A stretch of DNA of 64,000 nucleotides from Polyangiales bacterium (GTDB lineage Bacteria > Myxococcota_A > Polyangia > Polyangiales > Ga0077539), in contig JBGARZ010000009.1 of assembly GCA_044229975.1 (NCBI GenBank), forward strand, positions 155,947 to 219,946. Direction: 5' to 3'. Both the position numbers and the translations under genes were made by a program. The first letter of the stretch is position 1. Every line of letters starts with the position of its first letter. The notes beneath the pieces are model-generated. The model had not been told where the DNA came from, made no database searches, and worked only from the letters and a program-made list of their open reading frames with translations. Shown here one piece after another: positions 6,017 through 45,967 of this stretch.

Positions 6017-6124
6017 GCCGTTGGCCCGAACCTTGTTCTATGTCCCGGTGTGACCCTGAAGAGCGAGGGTTCTGTGTCAGCGTGAGCCACACGGGCCCGA
6101 GCATTCACAGTCGGAGGTAGCGCG

Positions 6125-21606: not shown

Positions 21607-21828
21607 CGCTCGAAGCGGCGTGGACCGTACCACCGCTCGCGCCGCCGTCATCGCGTCAACGACGTCATGGGCGACCCGAGGTGCGTAGAACCCTACGCGC
21701 ACCGCAGAGAGTGAGGCGAAATGGCAACGCCCGAGGGTGCTCTTGACCTTCTCGGAGCAACGCGGCAATCAGGCCACTGTCGCCGCGCCGGACCACGCGC
21801 CGCGTCAGCAGACAAAGGACTCCCCAAC

Positions 21829-22443
21829 GTGTCGACGGACGGCGAACAGGCAGCAGGGTCTCCCACCTCCCGCGTCGTGAAGCGGTACAGCAACCGCAAG
21901 CTCTACGACACGGTCGAGAGCCGGTACGTCACGCTGCCGCAGATCGCGGAGTACGTCCGCCAGGGCGAGGACGTCCGCATCATCGACAACACGACGAAGG
22001 AAGACCTCACGCGCATGACGCTCGCGCAGATCCTCTACGAGGAGGAGCGCAAGCAGAGCCGGCTGCCGCTGGGGGCGTTGAAGGAGCTCTTGCATTCGTC
22101 CAGCGAGCGCATCCTGTCGGCGGTGCGCGATACCCCGATGGGCAAGCTCATCGCCCGCGGTGAGGTTGCCCCCGCGGAGCCCGTCGAGGCCGAACCGCCG
22201 CCGCCCCCTGCCCCGCCGCCCGTCGCAACACCGGCCGAGCCAGGGAGGGTGGAGAAGTTCGTCGAACAGTCGCGTGAGGCCATCGACCAGTGGCAGCACC
22301 GGGTCGACCACCAGATGAAGTCGTTCTGGGAGGGCATCAACCCGATGGCGCAGATCGAGGCCCTCCAGGCCGAGGTGAAGCGGCTCAACCAGCGGGTCGA
22401 GGTGCTCGAAGCCGAGCGCCGCGACCGCGGCTCTTCGGACTGA
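21829..22443 (+). CDS. phaR: PhaR-like polyhydroxyalkanoate synthesis repressor
   Basis: [57 protein letters not shown] matches the PhaR N-terminal DNA-binding domain (PF07879). A GTG at 21829 lies 8 nt after AAAGGA. A C-terminal coiled coil is present. Confidence 0.75.
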
Positions 22444-22517
22444 CCACCCGCACCCCGGGAATAGTTCCCCCCCTTGCCAGGGTTCCCCGCAATGCTTCCC
22501 TACGGCCGCCGAGGAAC

Positions 22518-23141
22518 ATGATGGACCCCATTCAGCGACGAAAGATCTTCGAGGCCGAGGTGCTCCCGCACCTGGACGCGATGCACCGCACGGCCACGCA
22601 GTTCACCCGCAGCTCCAGCGACGCTGACGACCTGGTGCAGGACGCCGTGGTCAAAGCGTGGCGCTTCTTCGACAGCTACGAGCGGGGCACCAACATCCGG
22701 GCCTGGCTCCTCAAGATCGTCACCAACGTCTTCTACTCCAAGCACCGCCGCAACAACCTCGAAGGCAACGTCCACGCGATGGCGACCGTCGACCCGGTCT
22801 CCGACGGGTGGATCGGCGCGTCGTCGATGAACGCCCAGCGCGAACCCGAGCGCGTCGCCGAGCGGCCGCTGCTCGAACGCTCCGTCGCCGAGGCGCTGAA
22901 GGATCTGCCGGAAGACTTCCGTCAGGTGTTGGTTCTGGTCGACGTGGAAGGGCTCACGTACCGCGAGGTCGCAGAGGCCATGAACTGCCCGATGGGCACC
23001 GTGATGTCGCGCCTGCACCGGGCGCGTCGCGCGGTGGCCGTGAAGCTGGGCATCGTGCCGGAGAAGTCCGCCGCGCCCGCCGAACAAGAGGGCGGTCAGG
23101 TGGTCGAGATGGAGTCCTTCCGTAGGCGCAAGGAGGCTTAA
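22518..23141 (+). CDS. ECF (group IV) sigma-70 family RNA polymerase sigma factor
   Basis: Sigma region 2 (DLVQDAVVKAWRFFDSY...AWLLKIVTNVFYSKHRR) and region 4 (LPEDFRQVLVLVDVEGLTYREVAEAMNCPMGTVMSRLHRAR). Confidence 0.9.
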   Translation: MMDPIQRRKIFEAEVLPHLDAMHRTATQFTRSSSDADDLVQDAVVKAWRFFDSYERGTNIRAWLLKIVTNVFYSKHRRNNLEGNVHAMATVDPVSDGWIGASSMNAQREPERVAERPLLERSVAEALKDLPEDFRQVLVLVDVEGLTYREVAEAMNCPMGTVMSRLHRARRAVAVKLGIVPEKSAAPAEQEGGQVVEMESFRRRKEA

Positions 23142-23144
23142 CGG

Positions 23145-23945
23145 ATGAGCGTGAGCTGCGAACAGGCCACGCGGTGGACCGACGCTTGGATCGACGGTGA
23201 GCTCGACCCCAGCGCGGCGCTGCTGATCGAAGACCACATGGCCGGCTGCGGTTGTTGCCGCGCCGAGGCCGACATGATCCGCAAGCTGAAGCGGGGGCTC
23301 GGGGCGCTGCGCGAAGACTGCGCGCCCACGGCGCTGCGCTACCGCATCACGGCGGCGCTCGACGCGTGCGACCGCGAGCAGGAGGCCGAGCGGGCGTCGG
23401 TGGTGCGCAAGAAGCACGCGCGCAACTTCGCCCTGGCGGGCGCGGCGCTGGCGGGCGTGGTGATGGCCAACGGCTTCAAGCAGCGCGCGGCGGTTCCGGT
23501 GACGGCGGCGGGCATGCTCCCGGTGGTGGAAGACATCGCCAACCGGCACGCGCGCGAGCTGCCGGTGGAGGTCACCAACAGCGACCCCGCGGCGGTGAGC
23601 CAGTGGTTTCGCGGCAAGCTCGACATCCCGGTGCGGCCGGTGACCTTCCGCGGGAGCCAGGCGCGGCTCGTCGGCGCGCGCATCTCCAACGTGCAGAACC
23701 AGATGGCCGCGGCGCTCTACTACGACGTCGACGGTCGGCGGATGACGGTGTTCGTGTTCGACCACACGCTGATGCCGCGCACGGTGGAGTCGACGGCGAT
23801 GGTGCAGGGGCGGCCGGTGTATGTGACCTCGTCGCACGGCTACACGGTGACCTTCACCGAGCAGCAGGGCATCGGGTACGCGATCGCGTCCGATCTGCCG
23901 CCGCAGGAGTGCGCTCGCATCGTGGCTCGCGCCGAGATGCGGTAG
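23145..23945 (+). CDS. Anti-sigma factor (ZAS-type zinc-binding N-terminus, one TM helix, extracytoplasmic domain)
   Basis: Starts 4 bp after the ECF sigma stop. It carries an HxxxCxxC motif ([10 protein letters not shown]) and a TM segment ([14 protein letters not shown]). Confidence 0.75.
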
Positions 23946-24033
23946 TCGCTCAGCGCTATCCCACCGGGCGCTCGTCTGGGGTACACCTTCGCGCCGGGCC
24001 GCTGACGGCCCGCGAGAAGGATCGGGACGAGTC

Positions 24034-25437
24034 ATGACGGTGGTGAGCATCGAACACGCGCTCTCGGGCAAGGTGGCGCCGGGCAGCGAGATCACGGTCC
24101 GGGGTTGGGTGCGTACGCGCCGCGACTCCAAGGCCGGGCTGTCGTTCGTGAGCGTGAGCGACGGGTCGTGCTTCGCGGCGCTCCAGGTGGTGGCCCAGGG
24201 GACGCTCGCCAATTACGAGTCGGAGCTCAAGCGCCTCACCGCGGGCTGCGCCGTGGTCGCGACGGGCACGCTCGTCGCGTCGCAGGGCAAGGGGCAGAGC
24301 TTCGAGATCCAGGCGACCTCCATCGAGGTCGTGGGCTGGGTCGACGACCCGGAGACGTACCCGATCCAGCCCAAGGCCCACTCGCTGGAGTACCTCCGCG
24401 AGGTGGCCCACCTGCGGCCGCGCACCAACCTCTTCGGCGCCGTCGCGCGCATGCGTCACTGCCTCGCACAGGCGGTGCACCGCTTCTTCCACGAGCGCGG
24501 GTTCTTCTGGGTCAACACGCCCATCGTGTCGACGTCGGACGCCGAGGGGGCGGGGCAGATGTTCCGCCTGTCGACGCTCGACCTGATGAACCTCCCGCGC
24601 ACCGAGTCGGGCGCCATCGACTTCTCCAAGGACTTCTTCGGCAAGGAAGCCTTCCTCACCGTGTCGGGGCAACTCAACGTCGAGGGCTACTGCCTCGCGC
24701 TGAGCAAGGTCTACACGTTCGGCCCGACCTTCCGCGCCGAGAACAGCAACACGCCGCGGCACCTCGCCGAGTTCTGGATGATCGAGCCCGAGGTGGCCTT
24801 CAACGACCTCGACGCCAACGCGGCGCTCGCCGAGGACTTCCTCAAGTACCTGTTTCGCGCGGTGATGGCCGAGCGCGCGGACGACCTGGCGTTCATCGCC
24901 GAGCGGGTGCAGCCCGACGCGATCACGCGCTTGCAGACCTTCGTCGACGCGCCCTTCGAGCGCATCGAGTACACCGAGGCCATCAAGCTGCTGAAGGCGG
25001 CCAGGAAGAAGAAGTTCGAGTTCCCGGTGGAGTGGGGTCTCGACCTCCAGACCGAACACGAGCGCTGGCTCACCGAGGAGCACGTCGGCCGCCCGGTGGT
25101 GGTGATGAACTACCCCGAGCAGATCAAGTCGTTCTACATGCGGCTCAACGACGACGGGAAGACCGTCGCGGCGATGGACGTGCTCGCCCCCGGCATCGGC
25201 GAGATCATCGGCGGGTCGCAGCGCGAGGAGCGCATCGACATCCTCGACAAGCGCATCGCGCAGTTCGGTCTCAACCCCGATCACTACCAGTGGTACCGGG
25301 ACTTCCGCCGCTACGGCACGGTGCCCCACGCGGGCTTCGGCCTCGGGTTCGAGCGGCTCGTGGTCTACGTGTGCGGGCTGTCGAACATCCGCGACGCCAT
25401 TCCGTACCCGCGCGCCGCCGGCCAGGCGGAGTTCTGA
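24034..25437 (+). CDS. asnS: Asparagine--tRNA ligase
   Basis: 467 aa, collinear with E. coli AsnS (about 60% identity by eye). Motifs include [31 protein letters not shown] and [14 protein letters not shown]. Confidence 0.95.
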
Positions 25438-25443
25438 CCCGCG

Positions 25444-26301
25444 ATGCGCCGACGCGTCCCGCTCGGCACCGACGAGAAGCTCTTCCGCGCGATGCACCGC
25501 CGGATGCTCGACGACCCCCGCCCCGTCCCCCCGTGGAACCTCCTCGACCCCGCGCGCATCCCCGACGCCCTCCGCGAGAAGGTGCGGGCGGGGTGGGCCG
25601 CGCGCGTCGAGGCGGAGTACCGCTCGATGGTGGTGTTCGGTGAGCTCATCGCGCGCTTCCCCGAGGTGGGCCTGCCCCTCGAAGTGAGCTGCGCCGCCTC
25701 GCGGTTGCTGCAAGACGAGGCGCGCCACACGGAGCTGTGCGCCCGCGTCGCCGAAGCCTTCGGCGGCCACGACGAGGCCACGCTCGACCCCGCGCACCTG
25801 CGCCTCGTCGACGATCAGCTCCCCGCGCACCTCTTCGTCGCGCGCTGGACGGCGTCGATGTTCTGCGTCGGCGAGGCGGCCTCTGTCGGGCTGCTCGGCG
25901 TGCTCCGCGACGGCGCCACCGACCCGTGCGTGGCGTCGGTGCTCGACACGCTCCTGCGCGACGAGGTGCTCCACGACCGCTTCGGGTGGGCGCTCGCGCG
26001 TCTGGTCTTTCCGCTGCTCACGGACGACGAGCGCGAGTGGCTCGGGGCCGACCTCGCGTTCGCCTTCGCCCACTACGACGCGATGGACGCCGGCTGCCTG
26101 CGGCCCGACGGCGGCGAGATCCCCGCCGCGCCAGAGGTGCCCGAAGACCCGGCCGCCGTCGCGCTCGGCCTCGGCTCGCGGTGGCGGTTCGCGCCCGCGT
26201 TCTACCGGCGCATCGACGAGGTCATCCTGCCGTCGTTCGTGGCGCTGGGGGTGCCCGCGTACGAGGCGTGGGCGCTGCGCCACGAGGCCGCTCCGCGCTG
26301 A
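25444..26301 (+). CDS. Ferritin-like di-iron-carboxylate domain protein (hypothetical)
   Basis: Two E...ExxH pairs (EAEY...QDEARH and GEAAS...RDEVLH) in predicted helices. Starts 7 bp after asnS. Confidence 0.45.
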   Translation: MRRRVPLGTDEKLFRAMHRRMLDDPRPVPPWNLLDPARIPDALREKVRAGWAARVEAEYRSMVVFGELIARFPEVGLPLEVSCAASRLLQDEARHTELCARVAEAFGGHDEATLDPAHLRLVDDQLPAHLFVARWTASMFCVGEAASVGLLGVLRDGATDPCVASVLDTLLRDEVLHDRFGWALARLVFPLLTDDEREWLGADLAFAFAHYDAMDAGCLRPDGGEIPAAPEVPEDPAAVALGLGSRWRFAPAFYRRIDEVILPSFVALGVPAYEAWALRHEAAPR

Positions 26302-26311
26302 CTCGCCGCCG

Positions 26312-26932
26312 CTACTGCCCTCCGCAGAACACCCCGGCGACGCGGCGGAAGCGCTCGGCGAAGCTCCCATCGAGCGCGCACACCGCGGCGCCCGCGAGCT
26401 CGGGGCAGCGCAGCGTCTCCACCGACGCGCACGCCGTCGACCGGGCGCGCGCCACGCATCCAACGCTCTCATCACCGCACGCGGCGCAGGACGACTCGGC
26501 GCAGTCGATGGCGTTCTGCTCGCGCACGCCGCACCCATCGGGGCGGTGGTCGCCGAGCACCAGCGCGACGCAACCCGCGACGTTGAGCCGCACCTCGCCG
26601 CGCGCAGCCAGCAAGGGACCGGTCCCCGTCGCGGCGGGCGAGAGGCACCGCGCGCAGTCGGCGTGCTTCGCGACGAACTGCTGACATCGGATGGGCAGCG
26701 ACGCCGGATCGAGACAGTTCGCCGCGTAGGCGTCGAGCTCCTCGGCGGTGCAGACGCGCATCGCGCTCTGTGGCGTGACTGCCGGCGCTGCGCTCTCGCC
26801 ATCGCCGGGATCGCAGGCATCCACCACGCTCGCGTCGCTCGCGTCGCGCGGGGCGGCCGCATCCTGCGGGAAGGGATCGGAGGAGCACGCAGCGAGCGCG
26901 GTGAGCGCGAAGCACGCGCGCCAGGACGTCAC
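26312..26932 (-). CDS. Cys-rich secreted lipoprotein (hypothetical)
   Basis: GTG start at 26930-26932 overlapping the upstream stop (GTGA). Signal peptide and lipobox read VTSWRACFALTALAACSS. About 20 Cys residues. It is the C-terminal segment of ORF 26312..27883(-). Confidence 0.5.
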   Translation of the reverse strand: MTSWRACFALTALAACSSDPFPQDAAAPRDASDASVVDACDPGDGESAAPAVTPQSAMRVCTAEELDAYAANCLDPASLPIRCQQFVAKHADCARCLSPAATGTGPLLAARGEVRLNVAGCVALVLGDHRPDGCGVREQNAIDCAESSCAACGDESVGCVARARSTACASVETLRCPELAGAAVCALDGSFAERFRRVAGVFCGGQ

Positions 26933-28092
26933 GGGATCTCGAGTTTGTAGACGGTGGTGCCGATGGCGTAGCCGGTGCGATCGCCCACGAAGCGGAAGCG
27001 GTTGATGTACGCGCCGAGGCCCATGGCGGGCTCCCACGTCGCGCCGCCGTCGGTGGTGCGGTACGCGGGACGGCCCGCGGCTTCGCCGCCGATCCAGCCG
27101 ATGTCTTCGGTGATGAAGCCCACCCCGAGCGCGGCGTACGGCCCCGGAACAAAGGGCATCTCGGTCCAGGTGCGACCGCCGTCCGTGGTCTTGATGAACG
27201 ACGACGGCGTCATTCCGAAGGTGAGCACCGCGGCGTACCCGACGCGCGCCGACGGGAACGACAGCTTCCAGCACATCTCGCCGGTGGCCGTCGAGCGAAA
27301 CGCCGTGTCCCACGACGCGCCGCCGTCGGCGGTGTGCAGGATCACGCAGCGCGAGCTCGCGCCCGTCGACGACGCCCCGGTGACCCAGCCCTCCATCGGG
27401 TTGATGAAGTGGGCGTCGACGAGCATCGCGATGTGCTCGGAGATGTCGGTGGACTCCCAGGTCGCGCCGCCGTCGGTCGTGCGAAGGAAGAAGCTCGGAC
27501 CGCCGACGCGACCGGTGGCGATGATGTTCTGCGCGTCGAGCTGGTTGAAGTTGCAGATGCCTACCGGAGACTCGCCCGTGATCGAGGTGACCGGCGTGAG
27601 GGTCGCGCCGCCGTTGATGGTCGCGTAGAGCGGCACCGTGTCGGTGACGCCGGGGTAGTAGCCCGGCCCGATGTTGGCGACGAAGCCCCTGTTCTCGTCG
27701 AGGAAGGTGACCGCGCGGAAGTAGGTTCCGCGTTGGTTGATGAGGCGCGCCCAGGTGTCGCCGCCGTCGTCGGTGTGGAACATCTGGCCCTGCCCGTTGA
27801 CGCTCCATCCGACGCGGGGGTTGATGAAGTAGACGTCGTCCTGCTTGCCCGCGATGGTGGGCGCGCTCGGGAGGCGACGCCACGTCGCCGCGAGGATGTC
27901 GTCACGCGTGGGCCCCGGCACGACCACATCGACCGCGACGTCGGGCGTCACGTCGACGACGACGGGCACATCCCCGGCGGGGCGATCGACGGCAGGGACA
28001 TCGACCCCGGCATCGACGGGCGCCGCGGGCGTGGGCGAGCTGCACGCGGCGAGGACCAGAAGGAGGGTGGAGACGAGAGATGCGGGGCGCAT
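26929..28092 (-). CDS. BNR/Asp-box repeat beta-propeller lipoprotein (Ycf48/sialidase-like fold)
   Basis: Lipobox LAACSS. Five SxDxGxTW-type BNR motifs (TDDGGDTW, TTDGGATWES, TADGGASWD, TTDGGRTWT, TTDGGATWE). Confidence 0.75.
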   Translation of the reverse strand: MRPASLVSTLLLVLAACSSPTPAAPVDAGVDVPAVDRPAGDVPVVVDVTPDVAVDVVVPGPTRDDILAATWRRLPSAPTIAGKQDDVYFINPRVGWSVNGQGQMFHTDDGGDTWARLINQRGTYFRAVTFLDENRGFVANIGPGYYPGVTDTVPLYATINGGATLTPVTSITGESPVGICNFNQLDAQNIIATGRVGGPSFFLRTTDGGATWESTDISEHIAMLVDAHFINPMEGWVTGASSTGASSRCVILHTADGGASWDTAFRSTATGEMCWKLSFPSARVGYAAVLTFGMTPSSFIKTTDGGRTWTEMPFVPGPYAALGVGFITEDIGWIGGEAAGRPAYRTTDGGATWEPAMGLGAYINRFRFVGDRTGYAIGTTVYKLEIP

Positions 28093-28127
28093 AGCCCGCG
28101 ACGTGTACCGCGGTGCCTGGCGCGCGA

Positions 28128-29063
28128 CTAGCGGGCGGGTTGGCGTGCAGGTCGACCGTCGCGCCCAGCTCGCATTGTGACCTGGCGGCGCGGCGCGCGG
28201 AGGAAGGTCGCCCGCAGCACGGCGCCGTCCTGCTCGAACACGACCGGAGCCGGGTCTTCCGCGGGCGCAGATTCGGTCGACGGAGGCACCCGTCCCGGCG
28301 CGCCGAAGACCCGGCGCGGGGGAGTTCCGTCGGCGAGCTCAAACACCCCGTCGTCTTGCTGCACGCCACGCGCGAAGAGGGCGCCGTCGGGCGCGTACGC
28401 CGGCGACGTGAAGGTCTCCATCGCCTCGACGTGACCGTCCGCCGCGCGAATCACCCAGAGCCCGCAGCTCCCCACCGCGACCTGCGCGCCGTCTGGCCTC
28501 CACATGACCGTGATGTTCGCGCCCGCGTCCTGGGTCACCCGCGCGCGCTGCCCGTTCGCGCCGATAAACCACACCTCGCGGTGACACACGTCGCCGCACG
28601 AGAAGATGGCCGAGAACACCGCCGCACCGCTCGTCGCGCGACCGAGCCGCGCCTCGGTGACGACCCGCGCGTTGGGCACCGCCCCGCGGACGCCGCGGGC
28701 TTCGACCGTCGCGCTCGCGTTGCCGCCGCCCACGCTGGCGTTGTCGTCGACGAAGGTCACGCGCTCACCGTCGGCCAGCGTGAGGTCGGGTCCGCTCGCG
28801 GGGTGCAGGGTGACGGTTCCGCCGGGCTGCTCGGCCATGATGACCCCACTCGCGCCGAGGGGGTTGGCCACCGAGAACACCGGCGCAGGCGCAGCAACGG
28901 GCGCGCCCGCATCGACGACGGGCGCCTCGGCGACCACGGGTGTCGGGGTGGCAACGGGCGCTGCGACGGGAGGCGGGGTGCTGGCGCAGGCGCCGGTGAG
29001 AGCGAGGGCGAGGGTCCAGCGGCGGTGGGTCGAGGTCACGGTGGCCGCGGAAGATAGAGGCAC
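28128..29063 (-). CDS. Secreted lipoprotein (hypothetical)
   Basis: Signal peptide plus lipobox (ALALTGACAST). A Pro/Ala-rich linker is followed by a beta-rich domain. Co-directional with the BNR operon. Confidence 0.55.
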   Translation of the reverse strand: MPLSSAATVTSTHRRWTLALALTGACASTPPPVAAPVATPTPVVAEAPVVDAGAPVAAPAPVFSVANPLGASGVIMAEQPGGTVTLHPASGPDLTLADGERVTFVDDNASVGGGNASATVEARGVRGAVPNARVVTEARLGRATSGAAVFSAIFSCGDVCHREVWFIGANGQRARVTQDAGANITVMWRPDGAQVAVGSCGLWVIRAADGHVEAMETFTSPAYAPDGALFARGVQQDDGVFELADGTPPRRVFGAPGRVPPSTESAPAEDPAPVVFEQDGAVLRATFLRAPRRQVTMRAGRDGRPARQPAR

Positions 29064-29090
29064 CGCGGGTGCCGTGTCGACGGCGGTGGC

Positions 29091-29444
29091 TCAGCGAAAT
29101 CGCAGCTGCGCGTAGGCGGGCCGATGGTCGGATCCGACGAAGCCTCCGAGCGCTCGCTCCTCGGTCACGAGGTGCGTCGAGTGCAGCACGTGGTCGATGG
29201 TGATGCGCCCGATCCAGGGCATCTCCGCGGGCCACGACGGCTGCACCCCGCGGCCTCGCAGCGAGTCGACGAGCCCCGTCACCTCGCGCAGTGAGCGCAG
29301 CGGTCGCGACCACGGCATCGCGTTGAGATCGCCGACCACGAGCGTCGGCTGCCCGCGCGCGACGACGCGCGTGAACAACCCGTCGCTGCACATGCAATCG
29401 CGAACGTGACGACCAGGGTCGATGAGTGGGTGCGCATGGAGCAA
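29091..29444 (-). pseudogene. Truncated endonuclease/exonuclease/phosphatase (EEP) family remnant. Only the C-terminal third is present.
   Basis: The ORF carries the late EEP motifs (GDLNAMP, IDHVLHS, GSDHRP) but lacks the N-terminal catalytic Glu/Asp region. No EEP-like sequence is found in any upstream frame across 29445-29797. Confidence 0.5.
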
Positions 29445-29797
29445 CGGAGAGGATGCCGTCCGTCGCGGGTCGTCAAGCCGCGATCGGCGAAGAGAGAGCG
29501 GGTCGTGCGAGACCTTTGCCTTGTCTCTCCTCTGACCCTTGCGACCCCAGGGCGTCCTTGCGGTTGGTTTGGCCGCAGCCCTTCACATCCCCAGTGGAGA
29601 GGCACGAGTACGGTCAGGCCAACGTGGGCACGAGGGACGTCCCCAGGCGACCTGCAACGGCGGCCCTCGGTGCGAGGGAGCCCACCACGCGCTCCGCAAC
29701 AGCCTCCCTCGCACGCTGATGACCCTGCTGCGCATCCCGCAACAGCCGCCCTCGACCCGCTCACGCCCTCCGGTCGTGCAGGTGTACTCCTTCGTCC

Positions 29798-31558
29798 ATG
29801 GATTACGACCTGCTCGTCACTGGCGGAACCCTCATCGATGGCACCGGCGCCCCTGCCCGCCGCGCCGACGTCGCCGTCCGCGACGGCCTCATCGTCGCCG
29901 TCGGTGACTGCCCCGGCACCGCCGCGCGCACCATCGACGCCGCGGGCGCCATCGTCACGCCCGGCTTCGTCGACATCCACTGCCACTACGACGGCCAGGT
30001 CTCCTGGGACCCGACGCTCTCCCCTTCGGCCGCCCACGGCGTCACCACCTGCGTCATCGGCAACTGCGGCGTCGGCTTCGCCCCCGTCCACGCTCGCGAC
30101 CGCGCGCGCCTCATCGCGCTCATGGAGGGCGTCGAGGACATCCCCGGCTCCGCGCTCGCGGAGGGCATCCACTGGCAGTGGGAGTCGTTTCCCGAGTACA
30201 TGGACGCGCTCGCCGCGACGCCGCGGAGCATCGACGTGCTCACGCAGGTTCCGCACGACGCGCTGCGGGTCTATGTGATGGGCGACCGCGCCGTCGCCCA
30301 CGGCGTCGCCACCGACGACGACATCGTTCGCATGCGAACCATCGTCCGCGAAGCCCTCCTCGCCGGCGCCGCGGGCTTCACCACCGGGCGCTCGGACAAC
30401 CACCGCGCCGTCACGGGGGACGCCACGCCTGCGTCCGAGGTCGACGCCCGCGAGCTCGTCGGCATCGCCGCCGCCTTCGATGGTCTCAACCACGGCGTGG
30501 TGCAGGCCGTCAGCGACTTCGACATGGCCACCGGGCCCGATCGCTTCGACGCCGAGTTCGACCTGCTGGAGCGCATGGCCGAGGGCGCCGCGGGCCATCC
30601 GCTCTCCATCTCGCTCATGCAGCGCGACATGGAACCCGACCAGTGGCGACGCATCCTCGCCCGCGTCGAAGCGGCCGATGCGCGCGGCGTCCCGATGCGC
30701 GTGCAGGTCGCCCCGCGGGCCATCGGCGTGCTCCTCGGGCTCGAAGCGACCTTCAATCCCTTCATGGGCTTTCCTTCGTACAAGCGCATTGCCCTCCTGC
30801 CGCTCGCCGAGCGCGTCGCTGCCATGCGTGATCCGGCCTTCAAGGCGCAGCTCCTCACCGAGAAGTCCGAGCGGCTCGCGGGCGACGGCAGCCCGATTCC
30901 TCCGCTCGCCGACGTGCTGCTCGCGCGCATCGAGATGGTCGCGCTGCGTCTCTTCCGTCTCGGCGCTCGCCCCGAGTACGAGCCCTCGGTCGAGCAGTCG
31001 CTCTACGCCGAGGCGCAGGCGTCGGGCCGTCCTCCGCTCGATGTTCTGTACGACGCGCTGCTCGGCCACGATGGTCGCGAGCTGCTGTACTTCCCGCTCT
31101 ACAACTACACGGAGTTCTCGCTCGACAACGTGCGCACGATGATGGGCCACCGCCTCGCGCTCGTCGGCCTCTCCGACGGCGGCGCCCACGTCGGAACCGT
31201 CTGCGACGCCAGCTACGCCACCTTCGCGTTGACCCACTGGGCGCGCGATCGGGCGGAGGGGAAGATCCCGCTGGAGCGACTGGTTCAGCAGCTCTGCCAC
31301 GACACCGCGCGCTACATCGGGTTGCGCGATCGCGGGACGGTCGTCGTGGGGCAGCGGGCTGATCTCAACGTCATCGACCTGGAGAAGCTTGCACTGCACC
31401 GCCCGCGCATGGCGGCCGACCTGCCCGCGGGCGGCAAGCGTCTGGTGCAGGACGCGACGGGCTACCGCGCGACGACGGTGGCGGGCGAGGTGATCGTGGA
31501 GGGTGATCGGATGACCGACGCGCGGCCCGGGCGGCTGGTTCGCATGGGGCAGGCGTAA
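29798..31558 (+). CDS. N-acyl-D-amino-acid deacylase (D-aminoacylase) family amidohydrolase
   Basis: 586 aa. N-terminus reads LVTGGTLIDGTG...PGFVDIHCHYDGQ (metal-binding HxH). Collinear with the Amidohydro_3/D-aminoacylase family. Confidence 0.9.
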   Translation: MDYDLLVTGGTLIDGTGAPARRADVAVRDGLIVAVGDCPGTAARTIDAAGAIVTPGFVDIHCHYDGQVSWDPTLSPSAAHGVTTCVIGNCGVGFAPVHARDRARLIALMEGVEDIPGSALAEGIHWQWESFPEYMDALAATPRSIDVLTQVPHDALRVYVMGDRAVAHGVATDDDIVRMRTIVREALLAGAAGFTTGRSDNHRAVTGDATPASEVDARELVGIAAAFDGLNHGVVQAVSDFDMATGPDRFDAEFDLLERMAEGAAGHPLSISLMQRDMEPDQWRRILARVEAADARGVPMRVQVAPRAIGVLLGLEATFNPFMGFPSYKRIALLPLAERVAAMRDPAFKAQLLTEKSERLAGDGSPIPPLADVLLARIEMVALRLFRLGARPEYEPSVEQSLYAEAQASGRPPLDVLYDALLGHDGRELLYFPLYNYTEFSLDNVRTMMGHRLALVGLSDGGAHVGTVCDASYATFALTHWARDRAEGKIPLERLVQQLCHDTARYIGLRDRGTVVVGQRADLNVIDLEKLALHRPRMAADLPAGGKRLVQDATGYRATTVAGEVIVEGDRMTDARPGRLVRMGQA

Positions 31559-31584
31559 CGGCGCACAGTCCCCCAAAATGACGA

Positions 31585-31612
31585 AACCCCTTCCGGGGAA
31601 GGGGTTTCGCGG
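31585..31612. terminator. GC-rich perfect hairpin (about 12 bp stem), likely a bidirectional terminator
   Basis: gaaaccccttcc gg ggaaggggtttc. On the minus strand it is followed by TCATTTT. It lies between the D-aminoacylase stop and the tRNA-like fragment. Confidence 0.55.
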
Positions 31613-31656
31613 TACCGGCGGTCGGACTTGAACCAACGACCTGAGGATTATGATTC
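31609..31656 (-). other. tRNA-Met-like 3' fragment: anticodon-loop region, variable loop, T-arm and acceptor 3' strand, with no 5' half
   Basis: The minus strand reads gggaatcataatcctc AGGTC GTTGG TTCAAGT CCGAC CGCCGGT A. That is CAT in a degenerate anticodon stem, then the T-arm GTTGG-TTCAAGT-CCGAC, then a 7 nt acceptor 3' strand and discriminator A. It matches the E. coli tRNA-fMet 3' half (AAGGTCGTCGGTTCAAATCCGGC). No complementary 5' acceptor strand (ACCGGCG) or D-arm exists upstream. Confidence 0.55.
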
Positions 31657-31767
31657 CCAGGGGCGAGGTGAGCGGGGAGTGCGGTTTTCACCGTGGAAGG
31701 GTGACGGGCGGTCGAAGCGGCGGGAGGGGATTTCCCCGGATGTTCCCCGCGGGAAGAGGCGGGGGTG

Positions 31768-32719
31768 AGTTCACCCGGACTGGCAATCAGCTTCCGCGGG
31801 CAGAACGTCTTCAACCTCGCCCTCCTGGCCGCCGCGCTCGGCTGCCTCGTGTGCATCGTCGTCCCGCCCGACACGACGCCGGTCTTCCTCGCGATGATCG
31901 TGCTCGGCGCCCTGACCGGTGTCCTCATGGTGCTCCCCATCGGCGGGGGCGGAGATGCCAGTCGTCGTGTCGCTCCTGAACTCCTACGCGGGCCTGGCGG
32001 CCTGCGCTACGGGCTTCGCGATCGACAACAATATCCTCATCGTCGCTGGGGCTCTCGACGCTGCGAGCGGGCTCATCCTCTCGATCGCGATGAGCAAGGC
32101 GATGAACCGCTCGTTCTCGAACGTCCTGTTCGGCGCCTCCGGCGCGCCGCCCGCCGCGGGGAGCGCGGCGAAGGGACCCGAGGGCGAGATGACGCCCATC
32201 GAGCCCGAGGACGCCGCGCTGCACCTCGCGTTCGCCGGCCACATGATCCTCGTGCCCGGGTACGGCCTCGCCTTCTCGCAGGCGCAGCACCGGGCGCGCG
32301 AGCTCGCCGACTTCATCGAGAAGCACGGCGGGGATGTGAAGTTCGCGATCCACCCGGTCGCGGGCCGCATGCCGGGGCACATGAACGTGCTCCTGGCCGA
32401 GGCGGGCGTCCCCTACGAGAAGCTTGTCGACATGGAGGATGTGAACGCCCGGTTCGCCGAGACGGACGTGGTTGTTGTCGTGGCGCAAACGACGTCGTCA
32501 ACCCCGGCAGCGAAGACGAATCCGGCGTCTCCGATCTACGGCATGCCCATCCTCCACGTCGCCGAGGCGAAGAGTGTTCTCGTGCTCAAGTGCGGGTGCG
32601 GCGTCGCGAGCATCGAGAACGAGCTGTTCGTCGACCCCAAGACGTTGATGCTCTTCGGCGACGCGAAGCAGTCGCTTGCGCGCCTGGCCGCCGAGGTCAG
32701 CGCAGCCACGTCGGGGTGA
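31768..32719 (+). pseudogene. pntB: NAD(P) transhydrogenase subunit beta (pntB) pseudogene: 5'-truncated and carrying three indels
   Basis: ORFs 31765..32724 and 31919..32719 together encode PntB from about TM helix 7 to the C-terminus (PIGGG...MPVVVSLLNSYAGLAA...HMNVLLAEAGVPYEKL...SPIYGMPILHVAEAKSVLVLK...LFGDAKQS). A +1 frame switch occurs at a G-run near 31930. The conserved GANDVVNP is encoded out of frame between two compensating indels near 32478 and 32503. The N-terminal 200 aa or so and pntA are absent. Confidence 0.7.
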
Positions 32720-33096: not shown

Positions 33097-34056
33097 GTGC
33101 GTTCGTTGCCCTTTCGCTCGCTGCGCGTGTTCGTCGCGACGCTCCCTGCGCACATCCCGCCCGAGGCCGCGCCCTTCCTCAGCGTGGACGGCAGCGTCCC
33201 CGGTGCCGCCTTCACCTGGGACCACCACATCACCGGCGAGCCAATCAACCTCGACGCCATGCCACTCGTCGTCGACGCGAGCGCGGTGCGGGGCGTCGGC
33301 ACGACCTGGGCGGACACCGACGCGCTGGCCTGCGTCGTTGCGATCATGGCAGGCGGAGCGAGCGGCCTCCCTCTCGATGCTCTCGCCGTGCTGCGAGCGG
33401 CCTCGCATCGTTGCGACCACCTCGTTCCTCTCGCCGGGGTGGATCCCGAGGTCGACCGCCGCGGGCTCGGGCTGCTCGGCTGGGTCAGCGACACGATCGC
33501 GGCGGCGACCGACGAGCGCGCGAGCGAGACCTTCGCGCGCGTCTGCGGCGCGATCGCGGACGACATCGCCGCCGGACGCGCGTTGCCCTGCGACTCGTCC
33601 AGCCGTGACGCCATGGCGATCGCGGCGGCCCGCCTCGACGCGGAGCGCCGCATCGAGCGGCGTGAGCGCCTCGCCATCGTCGATCTCCGCGGTCGCGCGC
33701 GCCTGGCGCCGGAGGCGTACTACTCCCGCGTCGAGCAGCAGGTGGTGATCACGGTCGACGATCACCCGCTCCGAGGATTCGCCTACACCGTCGGCGCCAA
33801 CCCCTTCGCGCGGACGCTTGCCACGGACCTGCGGTCCTGCCTCGCGGCGCTCGCGGAGGCCGAGTTCGCGCACGGCCCACCGGCGCTCCTCGCGCGGTCC
33901 GGACCCGGGTCCGAGAACTGGGGCGGTCGAGCGACGGTCTTCGGGTCACCCTGGAACTACGGCTCGCGCCTCGCCCCCGACGTCGTCGCGCAGATCATCG
34001 ACCGCGAGCTCGACGCCCGTGAGTCGAGGTCGGGTGTCGGGACGGGTCACGAGTAG
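33097..34056 (+). CDS. Hypothetical protein
   Basis: High third-position GC in this frame. The overlapping minus-strand ORFs are Arg-rich artefacts. No confident domain is recognised. The start may be an internal GTG. Confidence 0.45.
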   Translation: MRSLPFRSLRVFVATLPAHIPPEAAPFLSVDGSVPGAAFTWDHHITGEPINLDAMPLVVDASAVRGVGTTWADTDALACVVAIMAGGASGLPLDALAVLRAASHRCDHLVPLAGVDPEVDRRGLGLLGWVSDTIAAATDERASETFARVCGAIADDIAAGRALPCDSSSRDAMAIAAARLDAERRIERRERLAIVDLRGRARLAPEAYYSRVEQQVVITVDDHPLRGFAYTVGANPFARTLATDLRSCLAALAEAEFAHGPPALLARSGPGSENWGGRATVFGSPWNYGSRLAPDVVAQIIDRELDARESRSGVGTGHE

Positions 34057-41443: not shown

Positions 41444-44400
41444 TCAAGGAGAGTCGATGGAAACCGCGCGACAAGCGGTGGCGGGAGCCCAGGCGTCAGT
41501 AAGACTCAACGAGGGGAGATCGAGGGGGATGACATCCAGGGAGTCGCGGCAGATACGAAAATTGGTTCGACGAAGGACATCGGTGATGGCAGGAGCCACG
41601 GCGGCGGCGGGCGCTTCAGTCTGCCACAACCGCGCGAGATGATCATTTGCCCCCGTGACCAGAAGCCTCCCGTCGGGCGAAAAGGCCACCGATGTGACTT
41701 GCAGTGCATGGCCTCGGAAGGCGTGGAGTAGGCGCCAGGTACCCACTTCCCAGACCCGCGCCGTAAGATCGTCTGATCCGCTGACCAGTCTTGTTCCGTC
41801 GGGGGAAAAGGCGATCGCCGCGATCCCTCCGTTGTGCCCTCGCAATGCTTGGAGATGGCGTCCGCTCCCTGCTTCCCAGATGCGCACGGTAGAATCTCGA
41901 GAGCCTGTAACCAACCGCGTCCCATCGGGAGAAAATGTTGCTGCTGTTATCGAATCTGTGTGGCCGTGTAGGGAGTAACGCGGACGACCCGTGGCAGCGT
42001 CCCAGACCTCCGCAGTTTGAGCGGCGGATCCGGCAATCACTTGTTTCCCGTCCGGAGAGAATCCAATAGCGTAGACCCATGACTGAAGACCTTGGACGGA
42101 CCGCAGTAGACGCCATGTATCCGTTTCCCATATCTGCGCGTCACGACCGGAGAAGCACACGATCAGCCGCGATCCGTCGGGAGAAAGTGCCATCGCCGTT
42201 ATCGCACTACCATCTCCTTCCAGAACGTGGACCAAGCGACCGGTACCCGTCTCCCAGACTCGTACGGTGGAATCCCAAGACCCCGTCAACACACGCGTTC
42301 CGTCCGACGAAAATGCCATGGAACTAATCCTCCACGTATGTCCCTCAAGAGAGTGAAGGGGACGTCCAGTGGCGGCATCCCAGATTCGCGCAGTGTGGTC
42401 TTCGGAACCAGTGCCGATCCATCTTCCATTGGGCGAGAAAGCCACTGCCGTGACCGATTGGGAGTGTCCCTGAAAAGTGCGGAGCATGTGTTGGGGTCCC
42501 GCTTCCCAGATGCGCCCAGTGCGATCTTCGGAAGCCGTGGCAATTCGCCCCCCATCACGCGAGAATGCCACCGCAGTGATTGGCCCGGTATGCCCATGGA
42601 GGATATCGAGCAAGCGCCCACTGGTGTCCCATATTTTCACCAAACTTTCGTCATCCCCGGTAGCCAGTCGTTCTCCGTCTGGTGAAAAAGCGATGGCACG
42701 GACCGATCCATCATGTCGAAGATCACAAAGTGCGGAGCCATCGACTGCCCAGATGCGCGCGGCGTGAAAGCCGTGCTGAGTAGCTAGCAGGCGACCGTCT
42801 GGCGAAAATACGATCGCATCGGCACCGTTCATTTCCGTCATGAGAACGCGAAGCGAATGCCCGGTACTGACGTCCCAGATTCGCATGCTGTTATCCGTGG
42901 ATGTCGTAGCCAACAACGCTCCGCTGGGGGAGAAGGCTATCGCCTGGATGTGGTCGGTGTGCCCCTCAAGAAGATGGAGTAGGTGCCCGGTGGTCACGTC
43001 CCAGATTCGCGCGTTGGAGTCCGAACAGCCAGTGGCTATTCGTGTGCCATCAGGCGAGAATTTCATGCCACGAACCAAGTCATGATGGGTCAGAGAATTT
43101 ATTGCCTGTCCAGTTTCAGTTTCCCAAATCCGCACGCCATAATCAAATGACGCGGTGGCAAGCCTTGACCCGTCAGGCGAGAATGTCACATCATAAACCA
43201 CTCGATCAAACCCCGTAAGGGACCGAAGTAGACGTCCAGCATTAGCGTCCCAGATCCGAGCGGTAAAGTCATGAGACGCGGTGGCCAGTCTTGTTCCGTC
43301 AGATGAAAAAGCGATCGCAACGATTTTATCACGGTGCCCTTCCAGGGAGTGGAGCAATTGCCCTGTGTGTGCATCCCAGATTCGTGCCGTGTGATCCTCG
43401 GATGCGGTCACCAATCGTGTCCCGTCGGGCGAGAACTCCATCGCCGTGATGCCTGCGGTGTGCCCGCGAAGCACCCGAGCGATGGGGTGATCATCGCGCT
43501 CGATGACGTCCGCGTGAGCGGTGACGCCCCGCAAATCCAGCTTCCTCTCCTGTTGGGCCGCGGCGACCATCATCACCGCGGCTTCCGTCGGCGCGTGGTT
43601 CGCGCTCAGTTCTCGCGCCCGTGCCAACAGCAACTGGTACTTTCCAACCTCTCGTTCGCGCCGCGCTTTTCGCCACTGCACTCCGGCCACCGCTGCGAAC
43701 GTCGCAAGCGACGCCACCACGATGGCGATGGCGCCCACGCCGCGGCGCCACCTCCTCCGCTCCTTCGCCTGGCTACCCGCGACGAACGCCGCCTCGTCGG
43801 TCGTCAGCCTCGGCGTCGTGCGAGACCGCCACGCCACGATCTCTGCCAGCACTGTACCCTGCGACAGCAGATCCTCCCGCCGCCCGCTCCGTACCCACGC
43901 ACGCGTCGCCTCGGACACGCGTGCCCGCTGGGCGTGGCCTTCGACGTCCTCGACCCTCCAGCCCTGTAGCGTCTTCCACTGCGTCAGCAGCGCCTCGTGC
44001 GCCAGTTCGATCGTGGCCGCGCCTCTCGCGTCGACCGCCGACGTCAGCAGTCGCGCCTCGACCAGCGCGTCGATCACCGACTCCGCCACAGCCCTGTCAC
44101 TGACGCGCGCGAGTAGCTCCGCGCGCGGCATCGTCACCCGCGTGCCCTCTGATGACACCAGCGCCAGCATCACCTCCCGCGCCGCCGTCGCCCGCGGACC
44201 GGACTCGGCCCCGACCGTCTTGTCTGCATAGCGTGTCAGCGCGCCGACTACGCCCCCCAACGCCTTATAGGCCTCCGCCGTCAGTACTCGGTTCTCCTTG
44301 CAGTCTTCCCAGAGGAGGTCGGCCGTGAACTGCAACACGGGCAGCGTCGCCGGGCCGGTCTTGGCCTCGGCCACCATCCGCTCGACCAGCCCCTCATCGA

Positions 44401-45967
44401 ACCGCGCCCCGAAGCGCCGTGCCGGGGCCACGAGCGCCGCCGTCAGCGACTCGTCATCGGGCGTGCGAACGTTGACCATCGAGCGCATGTGCAGCGGCGC
44501 GAGTGCTGCCAGGTCGCCCAGCCGACCGAAGAAGTCCTCGCGCACGACGTAGACCACGCGCAGCGATCCCTTCGCGTCCACGGCCAGCGCCGCCAGTGCC
44601 TCGGCAAAACGCGCGCTCGCCTCGGGTGACGCACCCATGGTGAACAGCTCCTCGCCCTGGTCGACCACCACGACGACGCCGCGGTCTCGCGCCTGCGCCC
44701 ACGCGGCCACCGCCCCCGCCAACGCGACGGGTGTCTCCGGCGCACCCCCGTCGTCGAATCCGTCGAGCGCGCGCCGCAGCGCCGCCAGCAGCGCTCCCCA
44801 TGGGTCTTGCGAAGGGCGGCACAAGACCATCGACGTAAGCGGCCCCGCGGTCCGATACGCCTCGCGCACCGCGAGCCCTCGACGCTCCAGCGCCGGGCCG
44901 ACCCCCGCTTCCAGGAGGGAGGTCTTTCCGCTGCCGCTCGGTCCGAGTACGGTCACGAACGCTGTCTCGCGAATGCAGTGGGTCAGTTGATCCACCAGCT
45001 CCTCGCGCCCGAAGAAGAGCTCGGCGTCTGCGCGATGGAAGGCCTGCAGTCCGCGATAGGGCCGGTGCAGGATGGCGCCGCTCTGCGACTCCGCCGCGAC
45101 ATTGCTGACCGTCAGTCGCTCGTGCAGCCTCGGCCACACGGCGGGCTCAGAGTATTCGTCGCCCGAGGGGAGCGACAGATAGGTACCCGCGTCCTTCTTC
45201 CCGCCTTCGAGGAAGAACACCGCCAGCACCACGCTGTCGGTCGTGACGGCCCGCACCCGGACCACCGGGTCCAGCGTGACCAGCAACCGCCCGGCGGCGT
45301 CGACGAGGACCGCTTGCCCGCTCGGAAGGGCCTGACCCGCCTCCGCCAGGTCGAGGCGTCGCGACTGACCGTTGTAGGCAGTGATGCCTTTCAACCAGCG
45401 CGCCGACCGACTCTTCCCGGTTGGCACCACTAGGCGCACGGGCTCGATGAGGGGCATGAGCGCCGTGAGAACACGCTGCATCGCTGGGACGGTGCGCCCG
45501 GTGAGCGCCAGCACCTGCGCAAGTTCGGCCTTGAAGGGGTGAGCGGTCTCGTTGCGGAGCGCTACCAGGGCGTCGAGGTCATCAACCGCGGTGGAGCGCG
45601 AGTCGTGGTAAAGCCGAACCAGCTCGGGGAACGGATGGGCGATGGGGTCATGCCGCCAGGGACGGAGCAGCTCACGCGCCAGCTCGTGCCAACCTCCGCC
45701 TGTGAGGTGGCTCGATGAGAGGGTTTGCAGCAGCGCGCGCACCCTCGCCGGGTCGCCTCCCGGCCCGGCACCGCGCTCGATGCGAACGGAGAGGGCGAGG
45801 GCGGCCAGGAAGCGTTGCACCGTGAAGAAGACATTGAGCGTAGCCAGTAGGTATTCGTGAGGGTTCTCTGCCCCTTCGGCCCGCCAGAGCGCGTCTGCGA
45901 TGGGCGAGGGCCACGTGGACGTGATGATGTCGACGAGGCCAGTGTCGAGACGAGCGGGGTTGGACAT
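41444..45967 (-). CDS. STAND P-loop NTPase with an N-terminal HEPN-like (Rx4H) domain and about 14 C-terminal WD40 repeats
   Basis: The ATG at 45967 lies 7 nt after AAGGAG. PYRGLQAFHRADAELFFGRE...VLGPSGSGKTSLL is the Walker A region. hhhhD(Q)GEE is the Walker B region. A TM segment is present. About 14 repeats of about 42 aa follow, each of the GH...SPDG...ASxDxTARIWD type. The N-terminal 330 aa are paralogous to the N-terminus of the 51232 protein and include LVALRNETAH. Confidence 0.85.
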   Translation of the reverse strand: MSNPARLDTGLVDIITSTWPSPIADALWRAEGAENPHEYLLATLNVFFTVQRFLAALALSVRIERGAGPGGDPARVRALLQTLSSSHLTGGGWHELARELLRPWRHDPIAHPFPELVRLYHDSRSTAVDDLDALVALRNETAHPFKAELAQVLALTGRTVPAMQRVLTALMPLIEPVRLVVPTGKSRSARWLKGITAYNGQSRRLDLAEAGQALPSGQAVLVDAAGRLLVTLDPVVRVRAVTTDSVVLAVFFLEGGKKDAGTYLSLPSGDEYSEPAVWPRLHERLTVSNVAAESQSGAILHRPYRGLQAFHRADAELFFGREELVDQLTHCIRETAFVTVLGPSGSGKTSLLEAGVGPALERRGLAVREAYRTAGPLTSMVLCRPSQDPWGALLAALRRALDGFDDGGAPETPVALAGAVAAWAQARDRGVVVVVDQGEELFTMGASPEASARFAEALAALAVDAKGSLRVVYVVREDFFGRLGDLAALAPLHMRSMVNVRTPDDESLTAALVAPARRFGARFDEGLVERMVAEAKTGPATLPVLQFTADLLWEDCKENRVLTAEAYKALGGVVGALTRYADKTVGAESGPRATAAREVMLALVSSEGTRVTMPRAELLARVSDRAVAESVIDALVEARLLTSAVDARGAATIELAHEALLTQWKTLQGWRVEDVEGHAQRARVSEATRAWVRSGRREDLLSQGTVLAEIVAWRSRTTPRLTTDEAAFVAGSQAKERRRWRRGVGAIAIVVASLATFAAVAGVQWRKARREREVGKYQLLLARARELSANHAPTEAAVMMVAAAQQERKLDLRGVTAHADVIERDDHPIARVLRGHTAGITAMEFSPDGTRLVTASEDHTARIWDAHTGQLLHSLEGHRDKIVAIAFSSDGTRLATASHDFTARIWDANAGRLLRSLTGFDRVVYDVTFSPDGSRLATASFDYGVRIWETETGQAINSLTHHDLVRGMKFSPDGTRIATGCSDSNARIWDVTTGHLLHLLEGHTDHIQAIAFSPSGALLATTSTDNSMRIWDVSTGHSLRVLMTEMNGADAIVFSPDGRLLATQHGFHAARIWAVDGSALCDLRHDGSVRAIAFSPDGERLATGDDESLVKIWDTSGRLLDILHGHTGPITAVAFSRDGGRIATASEDRTGRIWEAGPQHMLRTFQGHSQSVTAVAFSPNGRWIGTGSEDHTARIWDAATGRPLHSLEGHTWRISSMAFSSDGTRVLTGSWDSTVRVWETGTGRLVHVLEGDGSAITAMALSPDGSRLIVCFSGRDAQIWETDTWRLLRSVQGLQSWVYAIGFSPDGKQVIAGSAAQTAEVWDAATGRPRYSLHGHTDSITAATFSPDGTRLVTGSRDSTVRIWEAGSGRHLQALRGHNGGIAAIAFSPDGTRLVSGSDDLTARVWEVGTWRLLHAFRGHALQVTSVAFSPDGRLLVTGANDHLARLWQTEAPAAAVAPAITDVLRRTNFRICRDSLDVIPLDLPSLSLTDAWAPATACRAVSIDSP

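Follow-up and report, generated by a model that had tools for sequence, protein, structure and literature searches.

A candidate att-junction scar with an unexpectedly conserved arm beside a tRNA-Met 3' fragment in a Polyangiales genome

We have analysed a stretch of 64,000 nt from a Polyangiales bacterium (assembly GCA_044229975.1, contig JBGARZ010000009.1; 'the window' throughout), near the middle of which the 3' portion of a tRNA-Met(CAU) gene lies on the minus strand without its 5' half. The analyses indicate that this fragment is the end of a 161 nt unit which recurs, 5' break included, in a second myxobacterium, and that the unit stands where the gene order shared with the closest relatives ends. 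We suggest, with a probability of roughly 0.5, that the unit is the surviving attR-like junction scar of an integrative island that recombined with an elongator tRNA-Met gene. Overall, an ordinary eroded attachment-site (att) scar with an unexpectedly conserved arm is the most likely account, and there is a modest chance that the unit represents a new tRNA-like RNA.

The tRNA-Met fragment

The unit and the hairpin that follows it comprise the following features:
31612–31772, minus strand: whole conserved unit, 161 nt, aligned by blastn and nhmmer with 2542–2382 of the second myxobacterial locus (L025)
31689–31772, minus strand: conserved 5' 'arm', 89% identical to L025, with a non-coding substitution pattern
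31659–31688, minus strand: linker, about 65% identical to L025, with vestiges of a tRNA 5' half
31611–31658, minus strand: tRNA-Met(CAU) 3' portion, apparently of elongator type, tRNA positions 28–73 plus CC (48 bases)
31582–31609, minus strand: GC-rich hairpin with perfect 13 nt arms (31582–31594 and 31597–31609), effectively 12 bp plus a 4 nt loop

Numbered by the tRNA convention (G28 = 31658, A73 = 31613, CC = 31612–31611), the fragment reads, from the sequence of the minus strand 5' to 3', CUGGGA-AUCAUAA-UCCUC AGGUC GUUGG-UUCAAGU-CCGAC CGCCGGU A CC. The anticodon CAT (31652–31650) sits in the 7 nt loop AUCAUAA, with U33 present; the anticodon stem, GGGA/UCCU, keeps four of its five pairs and has a T27×C43 mismatch; a 5 nt variable loop, AGGTC (31642–31638), is followed by the T-arm GTTGG-TTCAAGT-CCGAC (31637–31621), whose stem is fully paired and includes one G-U pair, and by the acceptor 3' strand CGCCGGT (31620–31614). 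A 5 bp anticodon arm with a U33 loop and a T-arm with a UUCRANN loop are thus both found, and every part that a preliminary description of this DNA, made from the letters alone, had recognized as the 3' portion of a CAU tRNA gene (T-arm, AGGTC loop, acceptor strand) is present on the minus strand. The tRNA origin of the fragment is beyond chance, because our own tRNA-Met covariance model (built from 13 intact tRNA-Met genes and one phage gene), when run blind over the 64 kb, gave a single match, at 31610–31695 on the minus strand (38.4 bits, E 1.3e-7). BLAST likewise matched the fragment to annotated tRNA-Met genes. The Rfam tRNA model matched over positions 21–71 with 19.9 bits, only if the sequence was cut at the 5' break, and at its gathering score Rfam returned no match for the tRNA stretch or the unit.

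The absence of the 5' half is real. ARAGORN reported no tRNA in the whole window at default settings and none at the 80% threshold, and pattern searches of the window for the fragment's 5' half were empty. For a 7-pair acceptor stem, ACCGGCG or GCCGGCG is absent at the right place, the best nearby options giving four or five of seven pairs; a D-arm with G18 G19 was not found either, the model alignment skipping the D-arm so that only a vestigial GCTC is left. The preliminary description had noted the lack of a D-arm and of a proper 5' acceptor strand and had proposed a tRNA finder as a check; the ARAGORN runs, the pattern searches and the model alignment all agree with it, with no complete cloverleaf at the default or 80% setting.

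The same description had called the fragment very like the 3' half of tRNA-fMet; the assignment to Met(CAU) stands and the initiator label does not. The degenerate pattern GGGAATCATAATCCTNNGGTCNNNGGTTCNANTCC occurs in at least 120 places in species-representative genomes; among the matches listed, 119 are intact tRNA-Met(CAU) genes, all of Alphaproteobacteria or Bdellovibrionota, and the 120th is cut by a contig end. Since the fragment has A32, U72 (a feature of the G1-U72 pair) and A73 in common with these 119 genes, and since the initiator trio G29-G31/C39-C41 is absent from it as it is from them, comparison at these positions identifies it as the elongator Met type, for which 'fMet' is not the best label. 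An Ile2-type CAU tRNA may be an alternative origin. The T-stem (GTTGG/CCGAC) and the acceptor strand differ from those of the listed genes with pairing preserved, and pairing kept despite a sequence of its own points to descent from a distinct, once functional tRNA.

A 161 nt unit shared with a second myxobacterium

The second locus, L025, belongs to a myxobacterial metagenome-assembled genome (MAG; GCA_030692645.1, 74% G+C). It had been included initially for a 70%-identical homologue of the window gene at 33097–34056, and the tRNA-Met model then matched it as well. By blastn, window positions 31772–31612 (minus) align with L025 2542–2382 over 161 nt, ungapped, at 86% identity; an nhmmer search with the unit gave an E-value of 7.8e-32 and a single copy in the window. 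Identity is 89% over the 5' 88 nt, 65% over the next 26 nt and 91% over the tRNA 3' part. The arm holds a 31 nt invariant block, CCCGCGGGGAACATCCGGGGAAATCCCCTCC, in which the motif CGGGGAA(C)ATCC occurs twice, side by side and in the same direction, along with small palindromes. The linker retains GCTC at the place of the D-stem and a partial complement to the acceptor strand, and has no functional D-arm or acceptor strand. Homology between the two loci stops exactly at A73–C74, and beyond this point lie unrelated hairpins.

Whichever frame is used, the 23 differences within the unit are spread 8/8/7 across the codon positions, and hence the unit is non-coding; on the same spread a protein-coding reading was rejected. 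Translations of its spurious open reading frames (ORFs), compared with 1.84 billion representative proteins, gave two matches of six short stretches each, which we read as low-complexity similarity. The arm folds no more stably than shuffled sequences (z 0.04 in L025 and −1.9 in the window; −1.3 for the whole 236 nt), and in covariation analysis, with two sequences only, there were no two-sided changes and two one-sided compatible changes. ARAGORN found no tRNA in L025. Further copies of the unit were found neither in the window nor in the other loci compared nor in IMG/VR, and in searches of phages, plasmids and IMG/VR the tRNA part alone was matched, at 80–89% identity, with nothing for the arm.

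What had been taken for G-rich filler (31657–31767) therefore belongs to a conserved unit. The preliminary description had also named, as an observation that would tell against its reading, related genomes showing the sequence as part of a conserved non-tRNA element; L025 supplies this in part. On the alignment, the conserved stretch seems to fit an att arm plus core, yet it opens the possibility of an RNA gene too.

Directly upstream of the unit in L025, on the same strand, lies a gene for a 784 aa protein (2596–4950, minus), separated from it by a 54 nt gap with a perfect 8 bp hairpin; for this protein we found no family in Pfam, NCBIfam, PADLOC or PDB sequences.

The hairpin of the window (−22.1 kcal/mol) starts 2 nt past C75 (31611), has the tail UCAUUUU at 31581–31575, and looks like an intrinsic terminator in its sequence: a GC-rich stem-loop and a U tract are present, though the U tract is imperfect, and a simple terminator scanner does not have it in its list. 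A terminator-like 12 bp hairpin had been placed at 31585–31612, at the tRNA 3' end; it is there, 3 nt further left. At the corresponding place L025 has a different, equally strong hairpin of unrelated sequence, so that in both copies a hairpin follows the unit within 1–5 nt.

The two flanks of the unit

On the 3' side of the tRNA fragment, the following stretches were compared with relatives:
29798–31558, plus strand: amidohydrolase gene (N-acyl-D-amino-acid deacylase type), the last gene syntenic with relatives, convergent on the tRNA piece
31561–31564: end of homology to the closest relatives (L001 and L146–L148, 94% nucleotide identity), 3–6 nt past the amidohydrolase stop
31559–31565 of the window against 11762–11880 of L001, 6876–7085 of L146 and 11768–12230 of L002: stretches following the amidohydrolase gene
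1–6017 of the window, against 29782–31561, with 11759–17484 of L003 and 14443–18511 of L002: block comparison with these two 85%-identity relatives

The amidohydrolase has relatives at 98, 97 and 95% identity, the best named ones in Polyangiales MAGs. The closest relative (L001, GCA_044228995.1) matches window positions 21742–31561 at 91–97% identity and stops 3 nt past the stop codon; in the second close set (L146–L148) homology extends to 31564. A recombination breakpoint had been predicted here, and synteny does end at 31561–31564; the break against the relatives is not where the tRNA is cut, the place it had been given, but to the left of the hairpin. Aligning the junction with relatives, as had been proposed, thus locates the end of homology, while no relative has a tRNA or pntA at the site. 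The DNA past the amidohydrolase stop differs in each of four close-relative contexts, and because each relative carries different DNA beyond the break, the site just after the amidohydrolase gene looks, in these alignments, like an insertion or rearrangement hotspot.

Two assemblies, independent of each other, break off about 210 nt past the amidohydrolase stop. In L003 an IgGFc-binding/RelA-SpoT block follows the amidohydrolase gene directly, and in L002 the same block follows after two extra genes; in the window it occupies 1–6017, about 25 kb to the left of the amidohydrolase gene and in inverted orientation. This gene order points to an inversion or a comparable rearrangement, one end of which lies near 6–7.4 kb. 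We found no repeat, inverted or otherwise, shared by the junctions proposed for the inversion, at about 7.4 kb and 31.56 kb.

On the 5' side of the unit lie:
31773–31790: junction between the unit and a pntB remnant, set by the limits of the two homologies and the reading frame, at most about 18 nt unassigned
31791–32719, plus strand: remnant of pntB (NAD(P) transhydrogenase beta subunit), starting at about codon 153 of 460, with a frameshift and the C-terminal 266 codons open
33097–34056, plus strand: gene of a 319 aa orphan family, the only gene in common with the L025 locus (70% amino acid identity)

The 5' truncation of pntB that had been reported earlier is borne out: nucleotide homology to an intact pntAA-pntAB-pntB locus (L006) runs from 31791 to 32697 at 80% identity, the Pfam PNTB match begins at profile position 151, short of a full-length domain of about 460 aa, and there is no pntA upstream of the remnant. 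The remnant abuts the 5' limit of the unit, which suggests that one later event joined pntB codon ~150 to the unit; in this event the unit, too, may have been shortened at its 5' end. The G5 run at 31945–31949 contains a +1 frameshift, which could be a sequencing error in that homopolymer. Beyond it a 266-codon frame is open (31919–32719, plus strand; third-position G+C 0.91), and its product is present in a public protein collection as the 254 aa product P0121, with an internal Met as its start. Among non-self PntB proteins the highest identities are 79–82%, and the next closest, at 73%, are alphaproteobacterial.

The window has about 70% G+C, and the value falls from about 0.71 to about 0.67 to the right of the break. 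The right-side DNA is without a close counterpart in the relatives (closest non-self identities of 75% for the 319 aa gene and 79–82% for pntB, versus 98% for the amidohydrolase), and a bounded segment is thus variably present among related strains. The 319 aa gene is found on the arm (5') side of the unit in both loci, and its relative orientation does not differ between them.

A proposed eroded att junction

With the anatomy of the fragment, the conservation of the unit, the synteny break and the absence of a coding signal as direct observations, we propose the following course of events. An elongator tRNA-Met gene would have been the target of an island, with recombination at the anticodon-loop sublocation. 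The stretch 31772–31659 (minus) would then be the island's own arm, and 31658–31611 (minus), from the anticodon stem to the 3' end of the tRNA, the core, that is, the block which such islands duplicate; the hairpin would be the terminator following the tRNA end. If related islands carry related arms and the same core, a unit 86% identical in a second myxobacterium, with all that lies beyond the tRNA 3' end different, is what would be seen. The island would later have eroded, a deletion or illegitimate join fusing the arm to pntB at codon ~150, with the integrase and the intact tRNA copy lost or lying outside the window, so that the remnant would now be found at a rearrangement hotspot just downstream of the amidohydrolase gene. 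Both the integration event and the role of the conserved arm, which would be a recombinase-binding arm, are what we infer from this arrangement.

An att-site remnant, already proposed in the preliminary description, remains the best reading, and it now rests on the extent of the 3' tRNA-gene DNA (tDNA), one-sided conservation and the synteny break. The fragment spans positions 28–75, beginning in the 5' strand of the anticodon stem and continuing to the tRNA 3' end, and its start agrees with one of the att sublocations given by Islander (anticodon loop or T-loop). Of 3919 islands mapped in the Islander collection, 3760 contain a 3' tDNA fragment, and in 2083 the att site is centred on the anticodon (PMC4383910); by this analogy the extent of the fragment would match the commonest class of island att sites. 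Displaced 3' tDNA fragments mark tyrosine-integrase islands and prophages in tRNA genes according to work cited there (Reiter 1989; Williams 2002; both as cited in PMC4383910), and partial tRNA genes arising from mobile-element integration have been reported as pervasive (PMC9897764). Moreover, conservation that runs up to A73–C74 and then gives way to unrelated hairpins is what is expected of an element arm, a core and a host flank. The shared 319 aa gene on the arm side, the synteny break beside DNA foreign to the relatives, and an arm that is non-coding, with paired direct motifs in its invariant block, without fold stability beyond shuffles and without compensatory changes, all appear consistent with an att junction, and plasmid-borne orphan tRNA-Met 3' pieces near a tyrosine integrase or an AlpA-family gene (considered below) lend it support by analogy.

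Several findings weigh against this reading. An intact tRNA-Met/Ile(CAU) gene with an adjacent integrase had been suggested as a check on it, and in the window portion none emerged: the 32 kb to the right yielded no integrase, second copy or intact tRNA, ORFs with coding-like third-position G+C at 31.5–64 kb included no integrase, excisionase or phage-type protein, and no second copy of the core was found in the window by covariance model or nhmmer (exact 21- and 31-mers of the fragment are unique there, with no second copy up to 3 mismatches). In L025, the 18 kb to the right contain no second core copy and no intact tRNA, and no integrase was found among the neighbours, in Pfam hits of all called genes or in scans of six. 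The unit is known from two copies only; the full CCA is encoded in neither copy, the end in the window reading CCG. In five relatives the DNA past the amidohydrolase gene contains no tRNA, which means that the hairpin side is not a recognizable native tRNA flank. Finally, an exact 25-mer of the fragment had no match among 185,579 GTDB species genomes, and the 22-mer GGTTCAAGTCCGACCGCCGGTA (T-loop plus acceptor 3' strand) was found in JGI metagenomes in tRNA-Leu genes only; both k-mers span the variable T-loop base 59, so that a parent differing there would be missed and these negatives are weak. The agreement of GGTTCAAGTCCGACCGCCGGTA with the T-loop and acceptor of tRNA-Leu of low-G+C organisms is a coincidence, and it follows that exact matches to the last 20–25 nt of a tRNA do not fix the isotype. 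The matches themselves are tRNA-Leu(CAA/UAA) genes or cut pieces on 12 contigs (L008–L019) of 28–52% G+C.

Other readings of the unit

Considering the conservation of the arm, it is possible, if on balance unlikely, that the unit is a non-coding RNA gene of about 165 nt, with small 5' hairpins, a tRNA-like 3' domain and its own terminator, which travels with variable, defence-island-like gene sets in myxobacteria. Its product, with a hairpin like that of an anticodon (CAU in the loop), a complete T-arm and a tail resembling an acceptor, would perhaps mimic a tRNA or serve as a decoy. The unit reaches 86% nucleotide identity where the only shared protein is 70% identical in amino acids, its substitution pattern is non-coding and the T-arm is fully paired; strong hairpins of unrelated sequence lie within 1–5 nt of both copies, which suggests that function rather than sequence has been conserved; and CACGG(U/C)G at 31695–31689 can pair with the acceptor 3' strand in both. 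In addition, 9 of 10 differences in the arm lie outside predicted stems and the tenth is a G-U/G-C change, although there are only two copies and this stem/loop pattern has a p-value of about 0.07 on a structure chosen after the fact. Against an RNA gene, the arm is no more stable than its shuffles (z 0.04 and −1.9), no two-sided compensatory change was seen and the anticodon-stem differences break pairs; the 26 nt stretch in place of the D-arm is the least conserved part; and we found no promoter-like site, no upstream promoter sequence common to the two copies and no Rfam family. That the unit and its hairpin together form a previously undescribed myxobacterial non-coding RNA gene tied to defence-island-like sets that include the 319 aa family is a proposal we make tentatively, and we think it slightly less probable still.

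Rather more doubtful is the reading in which illegitimate recombination, of the same sort as at pntB, broke an ordinary tRNA-Met gene. What is conserved upstream would then be the gene's former leader or upstream region, or another, unrelated conserved intergenic element, and the truncation would have been passed on by vertical descent or carried along with the surrounding DNA. Such a break would suit a rearrangement hotspot (the neighbour differs among all four relatives, and there is an inversion with respect to L002 and L003), a second truncated gene only 130 nt away, the lack of an integrase, and a linker that keeps vestiges of the 5' half (GCTC, and six of seven acceptor pairs in L025). 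Neutral remnants, however, are not expected to stay 86–91% identical where the shared protein is 70% identical, and the boundary of good conservation coincides with the anticodon stem. Furthermore, the aberrant 5' region is common to both copies, which implies that the 'break' predates their split and has been kept since.

The preliminary description had offered, as its alternative to an att site, a single deletion that removed the 5' half of the tRNA, the intervening DNA, pntA and the 5' half of pntB. The two truncated genes are close together and the junction at 31773–31790 lies directly at the unit; nevertheless 113 nt that are neither tRNA nor pntB separate them, these 113 nt are found in L025 together with a tRNA piece truncated in the same way, the relatives have neither a tRNA nor pntA at the site, and pntB lies near none of the 120 tRNA-Met loci listed. 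Because L025 carries the same 5'-truncated unit with no pntB nearby, the single deletion is refuted and we leave it next to no probability. A complete tRNA gene interrupted by an intron or lacking a D-arm is just as improbable and was rejected: its sole support is a contrived 'tRNA-Val' with a 182 nt intron (31611–31883), which ARAGORN proposes at a 60% threshold with introns allowed and which uses ACCGGCG, the exact complement of the acceptor 3' strand, at 31883–31877, but this proposal alters the anticodon and takes its 5' part from DNA 80% identical to pntB coding sequence with no D-arm there, ARAGORN at stricter settings and the 5'-half pattern searches are empty, and nearby acceptor pairing reaches just four or five of seven pairs.

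The variable region to the right

Beyond the 319 aa gene, the following genes lie in the variable region:
41444–46153 (minus), 51232–56073 (plus), 49654–51189 (plus), 56132–57850 (plus) and 58772–59755 (plus): nSTAND1/kinase/AAA_5 region

The 319 aa family has invariant WDHH, DxDA and GSENWGGRATVFGSPWN motifs, and no match to it was found in Pfam, PHROGs, NCBIfam or PADLOC. The surroundings of its gene vary: in one further locus (L149; 1507–9710 and 10001–10921) a clustered regularly interspaced short palindromic repeats (CRISPR) array with about 110 repeats immediately precedes it, and a kinase gene and type III cas genes follow downstream; in another (L023) an AIPR and a DUF4258 gene are in its vicinity, and in L025 it stands within a row of PP2C, VWA, kinase and AAA genes. 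Window ORFs at 33–41 kb gave nothing in Pfam, PHROGs or PADLOC. Further to the right, genes for Ser/Thr kinases and an AAA_5 ATPase are interspersed with those for a pair of giant nSTAND1 NTPase-WD40 paralogues of 1569 aa and 1613 aa, in a row that resembles a conflict or defence-type neighbourhood; G+C dips to 0.58 at 42–43 kb.

Significance and comparison with known systems

If the unit is an att junction, it is a routine footprint of island integration, of use as a marker for where a variable region rich in STAND NTPase, kinase and AAA genes begins. To our knowledge, islands that target tRNA-Met are barely described in Polyangiales-like genomes, and the 161 nt unit (arm plus core) offers a probe for them. 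There is also a caution for annotation, in that 'filler' beside a tRNA fragment can be the more informative part. If instead the unit is an RNA gene, it would represent a new tRNA-like RNA family in conflict-system neighbourhoods, the more interesting outcome, known from two copies only.

Bacterial RNAs with tRNA-like domains, such as tmRNA and the Y-RNA-like YrlA, join a T-arm and an acceptor-like 3' end to a non-tRNA body, and under the RNA-gene reading only, the unit would be built alike. Unlike tmRNA, it has a CAU anticodon-like hairpin, and it has no convincing acceptor helix, no encoded CCA and no Rfam match. With intrinsic (Rho-independent) terminators the window hairpin shares a GC-rich stem of 12–13 bp, a short loop, a U-rich tail and a place directly after the 3' end of an RNA gene; it differs in its interrupted tail (UCAUUUU), and a terminator role here is a prediction from sequence.

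The elongator tRNA-Met(CAU) genes of Alphaproteobacteria and Bdellovibrionota have the identical anticodon arm, GGGAAUCAUAAUCCU, the T-loop UUCAAGU, U72, A73 and a 5 nt variable loop ending in GGUC, whereas the fragment has a T-stem and acceptor of its own, a 27:43 mismatch, CCG in place of CCA and no positions 1–27. Closer in kind are two orphan tRNA-Met 3' pieces on plasmids, which are probably att sites of integrative elements: one on plasmid p186_1 of Bradyrhizobium sp. 186 (L020, 2982–3049), by an IS3 element and a tyrosine integrase, and one on plasmid 1 of Polaromonas JS666 (L022, 2975–3044), near an AlpA-family gene. They resemble the fragment in their similar extent, the same type of anticodon arm and the lack of a complete cloverleaf by ARAGORN, and differ from it in that recombinase or regulator genes adjoin them, that they reside on mobile conjugative replicons, and that their flanks are unlike the 113 nt arm.

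Compared with the islands in the Islander collection, the window yielded no intact direct-repeat copy of tRNA-Met and no integrase within 32 kb, the 'empty' site of its relatives is without a tRNA, and the putative arm is fused to a truncated pntB. In common with them it has a tRNA 3' fragment that extends from the anticodon stem to the 3' end (about 46–48 nt), and a boundary between conserved and variable DNA, with a conserved non-coding arm on the variable side and, on the other side, sequence that is unrelated between genomes.

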